Shown piece after piece: positions 4,867 to 60,255 of a stretch of 64,000 nucleotides of DNA (the stretch's first letter is position 1; each line of letters begins with the position of its first letter). The position numbers and the translations under genes were made by a program. This DNA is from Polyangia bacterium (GTDB lineage Bacteria; Myxococcota_A; Polyangia; Fen-1088), in NCBI GenBank assembly GCA_035696125.1, contig DASRQZ010000036.1, positions 11,110 through 75,109 of the forward strand. The letters run 5' to 3'. Under the pieces are notes generated by a model. The model saw nothing but the letters and a program-made list of their open reading frames with translations, was not told where the DNA came from and searched no databases.

Positions 4867-5203
4867 GGGCCTCGGGCCTCGGGCCTCGGGCCTCGGGCTT
4901 CAGGCCTCGGGTAAGTTGAGGATTACGAGTGCCTGCAGAGCCCCTGATCATACGGCTGTAGCCAGCCCCGCGGCGGATTTGGCTCTGCAGACCGAATCGC
5001 GCGGCGATGGGGAAACCCGCCGTCGCTCGATAAGCGTCGGGGACGAGGTCGTCTGCCAATAGCAACGTCCGTAGGCGGTACGGTTCTCTGCTCATGCCCA
5101 GACTCATCGGCCGTGGCGTCGCAAGAGTTTCCCCCGCAGTCCAGGTCCGACGCCCCCGAAGTCCGAAGTCTGAGGCCTGAGGCCTGAGGCCCGAGGGGCT
5201 TCG
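4867..5203. repeat. Hairpin element E1: (GGGCCTCG)n arm, 240-bp interior, complementary (CTGAGGCC/CCGAGG)n arm
   Basis: The left arm 4867-4911 is gggcctcg x4 plus ggcttcaggcctcggg. The right arm 5153-5203 is ccgaagtccgaagtctgaggcctgaggcctgaggcccgagg. The arms are reverse complements in type. Confidence 0.8.
4925..5107 (-). pseudogene. Four-helix-bundle protein (23S rRNA intervening-sequence protein family) remnant
   Basis: The minus-strand translation is SREPYRLRTLLLADDLVPDAYRATAGFPIAARFGLQSQIRRGAGYSRMIRGSAG. It fits the family consensus A..L...VY..T..FP..ER.GL.SQIRRAA.SI..NIAEG.G for the first ~55 residues. The second half of the family is missing. Confidence 0.5.
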
Positions 5204-5234
5204 ATCGGAGGCTTGCCTCCGCAAGGCCTCCCGC

Positions 5235-5403
5235 CTGACGAATCCCCGCGAATCTCGTTCGCGAGTCCGTCCTGCGCCGTCTTCCCGTCGGCGTCAGCGT
5301 CGGCGTCAGCGTGGGCGACTCGAACGGGGACAGAGCCAGAATCGCCGACGCCGACGCCGACGCTGACGCCGACGGATGAATCGTATTCGTGGGGATTCGT
5401 CAG
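5235..5403. repeat. Hairpin element E2 (169 bp), arms of GGCGTC / GACGCC hexamer repeats
   Basis: The outer stem pairs ctgacgaatccccgcgaat (5235-5253) with attcgtggggattcgtcag (5385-5403). The inner stem pairs ccgtcggcgtcagcgtcggcgtcagcgtgggcgac (5285-5319) with tcgccgacgccgacgccgacgctgacgccgacgg (5342-5375). Confidence 0.8.
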
Positions 5404-5451
5404 CCTGCCCCCTGCCGGGCTCTCCCCCGCGTCCATCTCGGTGGCCGGCCC

Positions 5452-6516
5452 TCAGGGCATCTTGAGATACTGCTCGGGTACGTCGGCGAAACCCCACTTG
5501 GCCAGCTGACGCGCCCAGGTGCCCAGGTTCTCCTTGGTGACCCGCACCGGCTCCATCGGGATGATCGTGGGCACGTTCTTCTTGAAGTAGATCTTGTCGA
5601 TCACGGTGGTGACGCCGACCTGGCCCCACAGGTAAGGCGCCTGTGCGATCAGCACCGGCGTCAGCCCCTTCTCGACGTAGGACAGCTCGGGCGCCAGCGC
5701 GTCGGCCGCGACGATCTTCACCTTCCTGGGATCGAGATCGGTGAGCAAGGTCTTGGTGTAGAGCGCCCAGCCGCCGACCATGGCCCAGCCCTTGATGTCG
5801 GGGTAGGCGTTGTTGACCCGGATGACCTCGGAGACGGCGTCCTGCGGGGTCTCGATGTGATAGAAGGTGCCGACGATCTGGATACCGGGGTGCTTGGCCG
5901 CCTCGGCCTTCACCGCATCGACGCGGCGGCGCAGGTTGGGCGCGTTCTGGTTGCCGGCCAGGATCGCGACCCGCCCGCGGCCGTCGAGCTGCTTGACCAG
6001 CTCGACCATCACGTCCTGCCCCATGCGCCGATCATCGACGCCGTAGAACGAGAAGCGCTTGGACTGAGGCGCGTCGCTGTCGAAGGTCATGACCGGCACA
6101 CCGCGCGCGACCGCGTCGTCGATCGCGCCCGTCACCTTGCCGGCATCGGAGCACGACACCAGGATGGCGTTCGCGCCTTCGTTGACCGCCTGGGCGATGC
6201 GCTGCGCCTGGATCTGGCCATCCTCCTGCGGCGGCGTGAGCCAGGCGATCTCGATCGGCACGCCGAGCTTGAGCGACAGCTCCTTGGCGGTGGTCTCGGC
6301 GCCGGTGCGCGCCGAAAGGAATACCGGGTTGGTCGAGCTCTTGGCGATCATCGCGATCCGGATCGGGTGCGCCGCCTCCGGTACCGGCTCGGCGCCGCCG
6401 CCGGGCGTCGTCGGGCCGCCGCCGGGGCCGCGTCCCCGGTTGCAGGACGCGAACATCAGCGAGACCGACAGCGTGGCGGCCCAGACAACCAGGAAGTCAA
6501 TGGCCGGCACGGCCAT
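5452..6516 (-). CDS. Sugar ABC transporter substrate-binding lipoprotein (RbsB/LacI-type periplasmic binding fold)
   Basis: ATG 6516 sits directly after GGAGG. The signal has the lipobox LMFASC. The body (IRIAMIAKSSTNPVFLSARTGAE, ILVSCSDAGKVTGAIDDAVARGVPVMTFDSD) is typical of type-I sugar-binding proteins. Confidence 0.85.
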   Translation of the reverse strand: MAVPAIDFLVVWAATLSVSLMFASCNRGRGPGGGPTTPGGGAEPVPEAAHPIRIAMIAKSSTNPVFLSARTGAETTAKELSLKLGVPIEIAWLTPPQEDGQIQAQRIAQAVNEGANAILVSCSDAGKVTGAIDDAVARGVPVMTFDSDAPQSKRFSFYGVDDRRMGQDVMVELVKQLDGRGRVAILAGNQNAPNLRRRVDAVKAEAAKHPGIQIVGTFYHIETPQDAVSEVIRVNNAYPDIKGWAMVGGWALYTKTLLTDLDPRKVKIVAADALAPELSYVEKGLTPVLIAQAPYLWGQVGVTTVIDKIYFKKNVPTIIPMEPVRVTKENLGTWARQLAKWGFADVPEQYLKMP

Positions 6517-6575
6517 CCTCCCGCCGACTCGGCGGGGCTTGCAACCGGACCCGCGCGGGGGCGCGCCCAGTATCG

Positions 6576-6946
6576 TCACCCTGGCTCCCTTGCTCGCGGG
6601 CCACGCGCACCGCTCGCCGTCAGGCGGCGCGCCGCGAAGCGGGTGCTCGACTGATCCAACCTGACGGCGATGGCGATGGCGCAGCCGATGACGATCCATT
6701 CGTAGTTCTGGTCGAAGTGCAAGGTGCGGATCGATGGCGGATGAGAACGATCAGGATCGCCCCCAGCATGGCGTTGATCGCGCTCCCTCATCTCCGCTGA
6801 GGCTGCCCCCCCGCACCACGGCGGAGGCCATGACGTATAACTCATATGCGGTGGCGTCTCCACAGGGCGCCGAGCGTCGTCGCGAGCCCGACGATGACCA
6901 GCAGGAGCCCGGCCTGCTGCGAGCCGAGCAGGCGGCGGGCGCCCAT
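6576..6946 (-). pseudogene. Ribose-type ABC permease remnant (internal deletion plus frameshift)
   Basis: The minus strand from ATG 6946 reads MGARRLLGSQQAGLLLVIVGLATTLGALWRRHRI*, which is a permease N-terminus. Further downstream, AINAMLGAILIVLIR in one frame continues as LHFDQNYEWIVIGCAIAIAVRLDQ in another, which is a permease C-terminus. About 250 residues of the middle are absent. Confidence 0.5.
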
Positions 6947-6970
6947 GAGAGAATGTCGTTCGGATAGGGC

Positions 6971-58286: not shown

Positions 58287-58315
58287 TTGCTGTTCCCAGC
58301 GAGGAGGACGAAGGC

Positions 58316-58864
58316 ATGTTGCACCTCAACGAGTTACTGGGCCCCGACCCAGGGGCGCGCGCCACTTCCGGGCGTGCCCGTGACGCTGTGTTGACCCTCA
58401 GCTACGACGAGCGGCGGCGCAGCCGGCTGCTGGCCACGCTGGACGACGGGCGCGAGGTCGCGCTCATGCTGCCGCGCGGGACCATCCTGCGCCACGGCGA
58501 CCAGCTGCGCGGCGATGGCGGTCTCACCGTCGAGGTGCGCGCCGCCGCCGAGAGCCTGTCGATCGCCGCCACCGGCGACCCGCATCTGCTCACGCGCGCC
58601 GCCTACCACCTGGGCAACCGTCACGTGCCGCTGGAGATCGGCGGCGGCTGGGTCGCTTACGCGCACGATCACGTGCTGGACACCATGGTGCGCGGCCTGG
58701 GCCTGGAGGTCTCGCCGCGCGTCGCCCCCTTCGAGCCGGAGGCGGGCGCCTTCCAGCACGACGGCGGTGGCGGGCACTCGCACGGCGGCGGACGCGCGCA
58801 CCACCACGACCACGACCACGACCGCGACAGCGACCGCGGTCCCGACCACGGCCGCGGGCCATGA
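58316..58864 (+). CDS. ureE: Urease accessory metallochaperone UreE with His/Asp-rich tail
   Basis: GAGGAGGA RBS and ATG 58316. It carries [14 protein letters not shown], and the C-terminus is [20 protein letters not shown]. Confidence 0.9.
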
Positions 58865-59535
58865 GCGATCCGGTCGCGTCCCTGCGCCTGTTGCAGCTGG
58901 TCAGCCCGGCGCTGCCGATCGGCACCTTCGCCTATTCGCAGGCGCTCGAGGCCGCCGTCGCCGCCGGCTGGATCGATGGCGAGCCCGGCGCGCGCGACTG
59001 GATCGGCGGCTTGCTGGCGGGCACGGTGGGCGGCCTCGACCTGCCGGTGCTGCTGCGCCTGCACGGCGCCTGGACGCGCGACGACCAGGACGCCGTCGCC
59101 GCCTGGTCGCGCTTCCTGCTCGCCGCGCGCGCCGCGGGCGAGCTGCAGACCGAGGAGCGCCAGCTGGGCGGCAATCTGGCGCGGCTGCTGGGCGGCCTTG
59201 GCGTCGGGGAAGCGCCGGCGTGGATCGCGCGCGCCGACGTCAGCTACGCCGCGATGTTCGCGCTCGCCGCCGTGCGCTGGCAGATCCCGCTCGCCAGCGC
59301 CTTGCAGGGTCATGCCTTCGCCTGGGTCGAGGCCCAGACCAGCGCCGCCGTGCGCCTGGTCCCGCTGGGCCAGACCGCGGGCCAGCGCATCTTGCTCGAG
59401 CTCGGCGCGCTCATCCCCGCCGTGGTCGCGCGCGCGCTGGCCGTGGCCGACGACGACATCGCCGCCGCCGCCCCCTCGCACGCCATCGCCAGCGCGCGGC
59501 ACGAAACCCAGTACTCGCGCCTGTTCCGATCCTGA
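58861..59535 (+). CDS. ureF: Urease accessory protein UreF
   Basis: There is an ATGA overlap with ureE. The blocks are [21 protein letters not shown] and [14 protein letters not shown]. Confidence 0.9.
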
Positions 59536-59564
59536 GCGCACCCCGAGCCAGGAGCACCACCACC

Positions 59565-60182
59565 ATGAACCACAGTCCCCACCCTCTGCGCCTCGGCATC
59601 GCCGGCCCGGTCGGATCAGGCAAGACCGCGCTGGTCGACGCCCTGTGCAAGCGCCTGCGCGACCAGATCCGCATCGCCGTGGTGACCAATGACATCTACA
59701 CCAAGGAAGACCAGCAGTTCCTGATCCGCAGCGGCGCGCTGTCCGAGGACCGCATCGCCGGCGTCGAGACCGGCGGCTGCCCCCACACCGCGATCCGCGA
59801 GGACGCCTCGATCAACCTGCAAGCCGTCGACGAGATGATCCGCCGCTTCCCCGACCTGGATCTGGTGATCATCGAGAGCGGCGGCGACAACCTGGCCGCC
59901 ACCTTCAGCCCCGAGCTGGCCGACCTGTGCATCTACGTCATCGACGTCGCCGCCGGCGACAAGATCCCGCGCAAGGGCGGCCCCGGCATCACCAGGTCGG
60001 ACCTGCTGGTCATCAACAAGATCGACCTGGCGCCCGCGGTGGGGGCGTCGCTGGAGGTGATGGACCGCGACGCCAGGAAGATGCGCGGGGAGCGCCCGTT
60101 CCTGTTCACCAATCTCAAGACCAAGCAGGGCCTGGAAGAGGTCGCGGCGTTCGTGCTGAAGCGGGGCCTGCTGCAGGGGTAG
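59565..60182 (+). CDS. ureG: Urease accessory GTPase UreG
   Basis: The blocks are [48 protein letters not shown] and [10 protein letters not shown]. Confidence 0.97.
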
Positions 60183-60225
60183 TCACAATGCCGGTCACCT
60201 GGCGGAATCTTCCTATCTGTCTTTA

Positions 60226-60255
60226 GGGTCCTTGCGGGTCCTTGCGGGTCCTTGC
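60226..60255. repeat. Tandem repeat E13: (GGGTCCTTGC)x3 after ureG
   Basis: There are three exact 10-nt units, and I found no complementary arm nearby. Confidence 0.7.

Follow-up and report, generated by a model that had tools for sequence, protein, structure and literature searches.

A 64-kb stretch of a Polyangia genome (contig DASRQZ010000036.1 of assembly GCA_035696125.1, positions 11,110 to 75,109; from now on referred to as the window) raises the question of what the hairpins are that occupy many of its intergenic gaps. Their arms are built from short tandem repeats, and the repeat unit differs from hairpin to hairpin while the arms stay complementary. A first-pass annotation, made from the sequence alone, had proposed that this combination argues either for selection on structure, as an RNA stem or a DNA cruciform, or for a mechanism that generates both arms together. 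We favor, at a probability of roughly 0.5, the reading that the elements are dispersed palindromic DNA repeats, of the kind represented by repetitive extragenic palindromes (REPs) and REP doublets forming hairpins (REPINs) or by MITEs (miniature inverted-repeat transposable elements), and that they are kept by copying at the DNA level. They are not locus-specific RNA structures or ordinary terminators.

Eleven two-armed hairpins with tandem units of 6-8 nt in both arms were identified in the window, all of them intergenic. Detection was hairpin-first (ungapped hairpin, arm of at least 14 nt, unit period 5-10); a detector based on pairing Tandem Repeats Finder arrays was dropped because gapped elements escaped it and GC-rich hexamers within genes gave spurious matches. 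The hairpin detector returned 11 clusters in the window, seven of which correspond to elements listed by the first-pass annotation, and zero or one in each of 20 dinucleotide shuffles. Its hits within genes were only GC-rich chance matches of period 6 or 8. Intergenic DNA, about 6 kb or 10% of the window, contains all elements, in line with the proposal that they lie between rather than within genes. Fold energies (RNAfold, z-scores against 100 dinucleotide shuffles per element) are better than those of shuffled controls in all 11 two-armed elements (z -2.9 to -10.9). With DNA parameters, both strands fold equally well in three of the four elements tested (z -4.5 to -9.3), folding of the element at 25745-25807 being weak (z -1.7 to -1.9).

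The earlier count of at least 13 hairpins can thus be upheld for the 11 two-armed elements. It does not hold for 13040-13106, which is one-armed (z -0.2), and 10779-10943, which had been assigned to the same architecture, is a 165-bp palindrome without tandem units; 60226-60255 is one-armed, as already described. The four unit types distinguished at that stage do recur side by side in this one genome: type A (GGGCCTC- and GGCTTCR-type units among them; 4867-5203, 10950-11137, 28691-28769, 31507-31667 and the one-armed 13040-13106), type B (GCCAAGAC; 6971-7049, 37514-37576 and 51836-51933), type C (GACGCC/GTCGGC; 5235-5403 and 54272-54375) and type D (CAGTCAT or TCAGTNN; 25745-25807 and 55733-55858). 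The two-armed elements measure 63, 63, 79, 79, 98, 104, 126, 161, 169, 188 and 337 nt, the long ones being nested or compound. That nearly every gap above 100 bp would hold such an element was an overstatement: 10 of the 23 gaps of at least 55 nt hold a two-armed element, or 12 of 23 if one-armed arrays are counted. The remaining 11 show no folding advantage over shuffled sequence (z -2.0 to +1.5, from 12 folded regions that include the gap with the one-armed 60226 array).

Are these elements a stable property of the loci at which they are found? Contigs of close relatives, syntenic with the window, were obtained via homologues of the binding protein encoded from 5452 (77-93% amino acid identity) and of malic enzyme (82-91%). 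About 70.6 kb of non-redundant sequence from these relatives (L296, L299, L300, L302, L303 and L304) contains no tandem-armed hairpin, where about 12 would be expected at the density of the window (Poisson ~6e-6). Non-triplet tandem arrays number 0-1 per 10 kb in the relatives, except in L302 (2 in 4.4 kb), and 7-8-mer arrays of the window's unit types are absent from their loci. A comparison of orthologous gaps, suggested in the first-pass annotation, yielded absence rather than presence: the gaps downstream of the sigma gene, upstream of the permease gene and between FtsH and malic enzyme are empty in relatives. These alignments show that elements are gained and lost at particular intergenic sites within short evolutionary distances.

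Two of these loci are informative beyond presence and absence. The relatives encode an operon of permease, binding protein and ATPase that is convergent with an extracytoplasmic function (ECF) sigma factor gene. The window has lost the ATP-binding cassette (ABC) ATPase gene (1.5 kb), and elements 4867-5203 and 5235-5403 occupy the corresponding stretch (4848-5451); a tblastn search with the relatives' ATPase against 4800-5500 found no remnant. The permease gene is itself a remnant (6618-6938), with fragments 6870-6934/6938 and 6618-6875 around a 677-nt internal deletion, while the binding-protein gene (5456-6364) appears intact (88.6% nucleotide identity to L296). Elements are thus associated with gene decay at this locus. 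The element at 6971-7049 lies directly upstream of a degenerate -10 box belonging to the promoter of the decayed permease operon, and the orthologous gap is without an element in L296, L300 and L301. At the FtsH-malic enzyme gap, the type B element (37514-37576) is found only in the window and is absent in L302 and L303. A candidate malic-enzyme promoter (TTGACA at 37604-37609, 17 nt, TAGTAA at 37627-37632) is present in all three genomes, the remainder of the gap being unalignable between the window and L302/L303. As this promoter is kept throughout, the element belongs to the end of the FtsH unit.

Type B, the octamer family, reaches far beyond this lineage. A metagenome scan for ACGCCAWGACGCCAAG identified at least 120 contigs with GC fractions of 0.40-0.74, and at least 45 of the matches listed have the form 5'-(CGCCAAGA)n-spacer-(TCTTGGCG)n-3'. 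The modal arm consists of 3 units (21-24 bp). Many elements share ends past the arrays (TTGAACCGCC, AATGAACGCC and CTCACGCC), a conserved one being TTGAACC, and the three window copies, which have common ends and a common ATCCGGAT centre, fit these subfamilies. Many are flanked by GA-rich sequence on the 5' side and TC-rich sequence on the 3' side, and some copies in other organisms by A-rich and T-rich sequence. Contigs carrying type B often hold other unit types as well: three types occur within 14 kb of L117, and within 14.5 kb of L282 there are four elements, which represent three unit types. Altogether, at least 10 unrelated unit types with the same architecture were encountered, with isolated AT-rich examples at Clostridia, Prevotella and Gemmatimonadaceae loci. 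One orthologous pair differs by a whole extra element.

The arm order of this family bears on an explanation that dispenses with mobility and function altogether. Slippage could create an array and template switching, fold-back synthesis or break repair could copy the opposite arm locally, a peculiarity of replication or repair making the same genomes prone to it. Unique spacers would fit such an origin, as would the one-armed arrays at 13040 and 60226, the tie to a deletion scar, palindromes that run through the centre in 37514, 54272 and 25745, single-arm unit indels between strains (see below), a possible TTGGCGTC seed at the orthologous spot in L300, and the occurrence of several unit types in the same genomes and of none in their relatives. 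Symmetric fold-back, however, predicts both arm orders, whereas the CCAAG run forms the 5' arm in 45 elements and the 3' arm in 3 (one-sided binomial ~7e-11, among the matches listed). Further, ends past the arrays, TTGAACC among them, recur in unrelated contigs and phyla, and the copies at 28691 and 31507 share a loop that is not part of the repeat. Nor are tandem arrays generally abundant outside the elements; 11 of the 16 non-triplet tandem arrays in the window are parts of them. The polarity and the shared ends disfavor a purely local origin, which we regard as rather unlikely, although local slippage and fold-back may contribute to growth and to one-armed arrays.

Turnover of the arms could be followed in a gammaproteobacterial clade represented by contig L117, whose GatB is 94% identical to that of a Gammaproteobacteria metagenome-assembled genome (MAG) and about 83% identical to that of Thiohalobacter. 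In L117 and its relatives L306-L312, a tandem-armed hairpin is present in every gap of gatC-gatA-gatB-hsp33, beginning 0-49 nt past the upstream stop and ending 17-79 nt before the next start; the same operon gaps stay occupied, with changing sequence, in four species. Within an element, complementarity of the arms is 81-100%. Between species, 5' arms from the same gap are only 28-93% identical, at 81-89% nucleotide identity of gatB. Units drift in both arms together (CGCCAAGA, CGCAAAGG, CGAAGGCG and CCACGAAAT), so these orthologous gaps bear out the earlier observation of different primary sequences with preserved complementarity. An identical 30-nt arm (GAACCGCAAAGGCGCAGAGGCGCAAAGAAA) occurs in three different gaps of L312, which a purely local origin does not predict. 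Copies at different loci of a single genome are near-identical and more alike than orthologous copies in sister species, and complementarity is retained while the unit sequence drifts.

The same clade offers a glimpse of how elements change. Double nested layers are common, and in the CCACGAAA family the arm order is fixed in five of five cases. Among four strains about 99.4% identical to one another, a single arm shows an indel of one 7-nt unit. The two alleles at one gap (L306 961-1200 and L308 851-1195) have either 1 or 3 CCACGAAA units in each arm, and a portion of the spacer is inverted between them, a swap likely caused by recombination between arms. Units are thus gained and lost by slippage in single arms, the spacer can invert and new layers lie within the centres of old ones. 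CAAGAKR-type heptamer hairpins were also seen in the mreB-mreC-mreD-pbp2 operon, in different gaps of the two related species L117 (2452-2528) and L306 (5192-5265).

The freedom with which units drift also speaks to the idea that the units themselves are what matters, as convergent binding sites or G-quadruplex (G4) motifs for a DNA- or RNA-binding factor, the hairpin being incidental. Arrays of CGCCAAGA are conserved between orthologues, including a one-armed array (44/44 at 86% flank identity), and the same octamer with fixed polarity is found across phyla. The G3N4 pattern of the Xanthomonas GGGAATC repeat, which forms G4 structures in vitro (PMC4692102), is shared by type A and the 13040 array, both of which by sequence carry at least four G3 tracts. 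Types B, C and D, on the other hand, have no such tracts, at least 10 unrelated unit types share one architecture, and drift of units between sister species with complementarity kept is the opposite of what a fixed motif predicts. We therefore consider this explanation improbable.

Is it then an RNA stem that is selected? In 55 tandem-armed hairpins from the window and metagenome contigs, arm mismatches comprise 84 G:T, 63 A:C and 135 transversions, so that wobble-compatible changes are not enriched and neither strand is favored. These counts speak against the idea that the arms are held complementary by selection on an RNA stem. Between the two strands, fold energies deviate by as much as 14.5 kcal/mol, sometimes in favor of the plus and sometimes of the minus strand, unrelated to gene orientation. 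On the mismatch spectrum and the strand symmetry, together with the element-free relatives, the part of the first-pass proposal that invoked selection on an RNA stem was rejected. RNAalifold on 22 type B elements gave 11 pairs with a covariation term of -0.06, the underlying MAFFT alignment being out of hairpin register. Rfam searches at gathering and E-value thresholds returned no family match to the elements; look-alikes of miRNA precursors at 54285 and 28688 were below threshold.

A role of the hairpins in transcripts is a separate matter. They could act as orientation-independent terminators or attenuators without a U-tract, as barriers to 3' exonucleases or as RNase III sites, with selection maintaining the stem and tandem units being merely the way in which long stems grow. 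Nine or 10 of the 12 window sites begin 0-48 nt past a stop codon. The element is closer to the upstream stop than to the next start in all six co-directional gaps. Type B elements in metagenome contigs are mostly in co-directional or convergent gaps and lie within 45 nt of the stop in 12 of 15 co-directional cases, a count that rests on crude gene calls and is indicative only. It should be noted that genes were mapped from the phase of G+C at third codon positions (GC3), open reading frames (ORFs) and Pfam, and that calls based on GC3 are rough, about 15% of those in the window being wrong. The GA-rich and TC-rich flanks of many type B elements, the modal arm of 21-24 bp and the lasting occupancy of the gammaproteobacterial gaps point in the same direction. 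The window contains canonical terminator-like sites no more often than chance would predict (8 where 7.5 were expected, and 4 where 6.3 were), so its transcripts must end by some other means. Stop-codon proximity thus leaves room for a role at transcript 3' ends.

[quoted passage not shown] Half of the window gaps, 3' ends included, are unstructured, and the arm mismatches carry neither the G·U enrichment nor the strand bias of a selected stem. Perfect arms of 26-33 bp go beyond what selection for stability would maintain, and one gap, with two elements, stands where a gene was deleted beside a pseudogene. T-tracts are absent from all elements, and none qualifies under a terminator rule requiring at least 5 T in 8 nt after a short GC-rich stem, which agrees with the view that they are not plain intrinsic terminators. 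Two elements (6971-7049 and 28691-28769) lie in divergent promoter regions, the small minus-strand gene 28285-28587 leaving the setting of the latter unchanged. Three more are inside a transporter-urease cluster (51836, 54272 and 55733, the latter two flanking ureD before ureAB), so both the divergent and the operon-internal placements named in the first pass were recovered and the elements are not confined to 3' ends of transcription units. Within gatCAB and mreBCD, full termination would be harmful. The sequence patterns can be explained without a functional role, which we hold to be unlikely as the primary explanation.

Palindromes are a known artefact class, and since the window comes from a metagenome-type assembly, chimeric inverted duplications introduced by library preparation or assembly had to be considered. 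An independent JGI contig (L001, 14 kb) matches window positions 28750-42991 at 99.9% and otherwise differs by 9 single-nucleotide polymorphisms (SNPs) and one indel, yet two elements, 31507-31667 among them, and part of a third are base-identical. Members of the same families turn up in assemblies from NCBI, ENA and JGI, and four strain-level assemblies also contain them, surrounded by SNPs of the usual pattern. As independent assemblies agree, an artefact was rejected and its remaining probability is negligible. The single indel, 6 nt (AGGCGA) at 42671-42676 and the only one in 14.2 kb, falls within a coding (CGACGC)n repeat of an ABC-transporter gene.

Gain and loss, several coexisting families, the likeness of copies within a genome, fixed polarity, ends shared across phyla, nesting and neutral-looking mismatches together correspond to the behavior of dispersed palindromic repeats. 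Since the arms co-evolve, the key inference of the first-pass annotation was right in fact, and its second alternative, that both arms are made or kept together, is closer to the data, with the qualification that the process would be a dispersed repeat process and not a purely local one; the likely cause is copying or conversion at the DNA level. We hypothesize that each arm is a copy of a 20-45 nt module, itself a tandem array of 2-6 units of 6-10 nt, and that the arms would be placed as inverted copies in fixed order around a variable spacer. Spread and homogenization of the arms would take place at the DNA level, through copying of a master element into hairpin-forming or gene-end sites, or through gene conversion among copies and between arms, possibly catalyzed by a hairpin-specific enzyme. 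Intergenic DNA just past stop codons presumably tolerates such elements, which may be why they persist there. Reading the same on both strands, an element would give any transcript that crosses it a stem of 20-45 bp, which might stop 3' exonucleases, serve as a substrate for RNase III or hinder RNA polymerase. Effects of this sort (a barrier to exonucleases, cleavage by RNase III, partial termination) are suggested by the analogous REP and Correia elements; they would have arisen as by-products or been co-opted secondarily and would not be the reason why the arms match.

Several observations weigh against dispersed repeats. No target-site duplications were seen at 45 type B elements or at the window elements, and spacers and interiors are mostly locus-unique, the loop shared by 28691 and 31507 excepted, unlike in classical MITE families. 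Annotation of genes and Pfam domains revealed no transposase, RAYT/Y1 protein or reverse transcriptase in the window or in element-rich loci, and clustering of gene neighbors gave no gene family that recurs beside type B elements. The analysis covered 64 kb of the source genome. In L300, an 8-nt TTGGCGTC at the spot aligned to the window's type B arm hints at growth in place. The lasting occupancy of the gatCAB-hsp33 gaps could reflect selection for a hairpin at these sites. Finally, type B arrays are unchanged in some orthologous pairs (25/25, 44/44 and 34/34 at 76-89% flank identity; P ~1e-3, 1e-3 and 0.02), and such perfect conservation could indicate functional constraint instead of conversion.

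A more far-reaching variant, which we put forward tentatively and think unlikely at present, is that the elements form an unrecognized cross-phylum class of palindromes with tandem-array arms, fixed polarity and, in the octamer family, a TTGAAC head, spread by a dedicated activity. This activity may be a transposase that targets hairpin loops, or a process that adds repeat modules from a template onto the two 3' ends at a break; the latter would by itself yield convergent polarity, nesting within palindrome centres and a link with deletions. Elements of this class may repeatedly colonize the same gene-end and intercistronic sites. As to possible vehicles, IMG/VR scans gave no sign of phage carriage of type B: its 16-mer was mostly single and probably coding, with few copies in hairpin form (L223 the clearest, also L282 and L237), and several unit types occur together in L282, L244 and L277. 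A BLAST search of plasmids with a type B element returned only Vibrio tandem repeats. The 30% GC contig L046 (Oceanirhabdus, Clostridia) carries two elements of about 250 nt (12669-12891 and 17972-18221) with ATAATGT-type heptamer arms and a common, highly structured interior, a MITE-like family with tandem-unit inverted ends.

Turning to the individual window elements, the first type A element (4867-5203, GGGCCTC-type, z -6.0) begins 19 nt past the stop of the ECF sigma gene (4128-4847). Its 47-nt arms (4865-4911 and 5155-5201, 81% complementary) enclose a unique interior of 243 nt. The GGCTTCR-type element at 10950-11137 (arms 10940-10983 and 11104-11147, 84% complementary, z -5.4) has outer unique ends GGTGTCAAAC/GTTTGACACC and a unique interior of 120 nt. 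The element at 28691-28769 (z -6.3), located between divergent genes 28285-28587 (minus strand) and 28869- (plus strand), has 20-nt arms of 95% complementarity and a 17-nt loop, CTCCAGTGAAGAGTCCTCC. A homologous type A core at 31545-31608 (87.5% identity to 28699-28762 over 64 nt, including the 17-nt loop) is embedded in an outer unique palindrome; this element as a whole (31507-31667, z -10.9) begins 19 nt past a stop codon. The 5' arm is the GGSYTCR run in all four type A elements, and due to palindromy this holds on both strands. The one-armed (GGCTTCG)x7.6 array at 13040-13106 fills a 55-nt gap between convergent genes and forms no hairpin.

Directly abutting the type A element at 10950 is the near-perfect palindrome 10779-10943 (z -15.8). 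It has CTAG at both ends, the left one containing the TAG stop of a FecR-like gene. No second copy was found in the window or the comparison contigs. It looks like a MITE of another kind, placed back to back with the type A element.

Among type B elements, 6971-7049 (z -9.5) has the ends TAACCGCC.../...GGCGGTTA and lies between divergent genes, 37514-37576 (z -4.6) begins 15 nt past the FtsH stop, and 51836-51933 (z -7.2) begins 8 nt past a permease stop inside a Bmp-type ABC transporter cluster, flanked by the permease gene and the isochorismatase/ATPase genes. Type C units are related to those of type B (GACGCC and GACGCCAA, respectively), the ATCCGGAT centre being common to both types. In 5235-5403 (z -9.5) the inner tandem arms (5285-5321 and 5339-5375, 92% complementary) are nested within an outer unique palindrome (CTGACGAATCCCC.../...GGGGATTCGTCAG), and 48 nt separate the 3' edge from the stop codon of the minus-strand binding-protein gene (5452-). 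The second type C element (54272-54375, z -5.5), 29 nt past an ABC ATPase stop and upstream of ureD, has a centre, TCCGGATCCGGA, that is palindromic in itself. Of the two type D elements, 25745-25807 (z -3.3) fills a 64-nt gap between convergent genes and overlaps the TGA stop of a CheX-like gene, and 55733-55858 (z -2.9) is located between ureD and ureAB. The one-armed (GGGTCCTTGC)x3 array at 60226-60255 lies 43 nt past a ureG-containing ORF. Further one-armed short repeats (10-16 nt units, 2-3 copies) occupy gaps at 28794-28822, 25 nt past the type A element 28691-28769, at 41042-41064 and at 48329-48360.

The window has a G+C content of about 70% and its FtsH is 72-73% identical to that of Polyangiales MAGs, homologues of two further proteins being labeled Polyangia. 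It encodes Ser/Thr kinases, ECF sigma/FecR pairs and, on the minus strand, a urea ABC transporter; the Bmp-type ABC transporter is followed by ureD-ureAB-ureC-ureEFG on the plus strand. An Rfam match to 5_ureB_sRNA (90.9 bits, E 2.7e-22) at 56725-57007 on the minus strand, antisense within the ureC coding region, probably reflects conservation of the urease coding sequence and is no real small RNA (sRNA). Imperfect 9/18/63-nt tandem repeats at 29038-29282 encode the Gly-rich N-terminal stretch of an 872-amino acid protein with MopE motifs.

If the elements are indeed dispersed repeats, a sizeable share of intergenic DNA in some large-genome bacteria would derive from a class that REP, MITE and terminator finders do not model, amounting to about one gap in two in the window and every gatCAB gap in the gammaproteobacterial clade. 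They would represent a natural experiment on the origin, symmetry and turnover of long palindromes. Their stems will confound terminator and sRNA prediction as well as metagenome assembly, and because co-evolution of the arms mimics compensatory change, they will also confound RNA discovery based on covariation. Sites inside essential operons make the effect on mRNA processing worth measuring, and the cross-phylum octamer family with its fixed arm polarity offers handles for finding the responsible activity.

Among known systems, Rho-independent terminators share with the elements a GC-rich stem shortly past a stop codon. In contrast, the stems described here span 20-47 bp compared with 5-14 bp, spacers reach 243 nt, the window copies are without a T-tract, and copies occur inside operons and between divergent genes. 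MITEs such as Correia/NEMIS are non-autonomous, have inverted ends, form hairpins in transcripts and are polymorphic for presence and absence, and Correia stems are cut by RNase III. MITEs also have a conserved interior, target-site duplications and a related insertion sequence (IS), whereas a conserved interior (bar the loop shared by 28691 and 31507), duplications and a nearby IS gene were not found for the present elements. Cyanobacterial short tandemly repeated repetitive (STRR) heptamers are intergenic tandem heptamers. TAACTGA repeats are found in Beggiatoaceae, Cyanobacteria and Bacteroidetes, and 169 direct sets and 1 indirect set have been reported (MacGregor 2015, PMC4679880). Both resemble the present elements as intergenic tandem heptamers at many loci per genome with a patchy cross-phylum spread and no known transfer mechanism, but they are almost always direct and one-armed, often just upstream of starts, while nearly all arrays described here are complementary pairs.

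Each REP is in itself an imperfect palindrome whose 5' GTAG head is conserved, and it is linked to a RAYT gene. REPs, bacterial interspersed mosaic elements (BIMEs) and REPINs agree with the present elements in being intergenic inverted doublets that form hairpins, with several families per genome and a genome-specific consensus. All three likewise lie after stops and between cistrons, lack target-site duplications, have variable spacers, form clusters and nested arrangements, and are present in some lineages but absent in close relatives. REPINs in particular are inverted doublets of short intergenic repeats (Bertels & Rainey 2011, PMC3116915). The arms of the present elements differ in being tandem arrays of 6-10 nt units that are not self-palindromic. 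Their ends are TTGAACC, TGAACG, CTCACG or not conserved, so that heads, where conserved, are TTGAAC, TGAAC or CTCAC instead of GTAG, and no RAYT gene was seen in the window or element-rich loci.

The nearest published description is that of the Xanthomonas GGGAATC heptamers, which form 70-75 inverted pairs per genome that are always convergent, the run rich in G lying 5' on both strands (Rehm et al. 2015, PMC4692102). These pairs are mostly found in co-directional gaps less than 50 bp from the stop, are rare between divergent genes, have no link to IS elements and vary in repeat length between species, and their one unit type has been read as a G-quadruplex motif (PMC4692102). Types A and D are likewise heptamers in convergent orientation and type A has the same G3N4 pattern; types B, C and D do not, and units are 8 nt long in B and 6 nt in C. 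A single genome here holds at least four unit types, of which three have no G-tracts, and there are also outer layers of unique palindrome and an octamer family that crosses phyla. The feature common to all is the hairpin and not the G-quadruplex. A literature search with the unit sequences found no paper containing them. A reading based on the hairpin could unify the Xanthomonas GGGAATC pairs with the reported over-representation of heptamer simple sequence repeats (SSRs).

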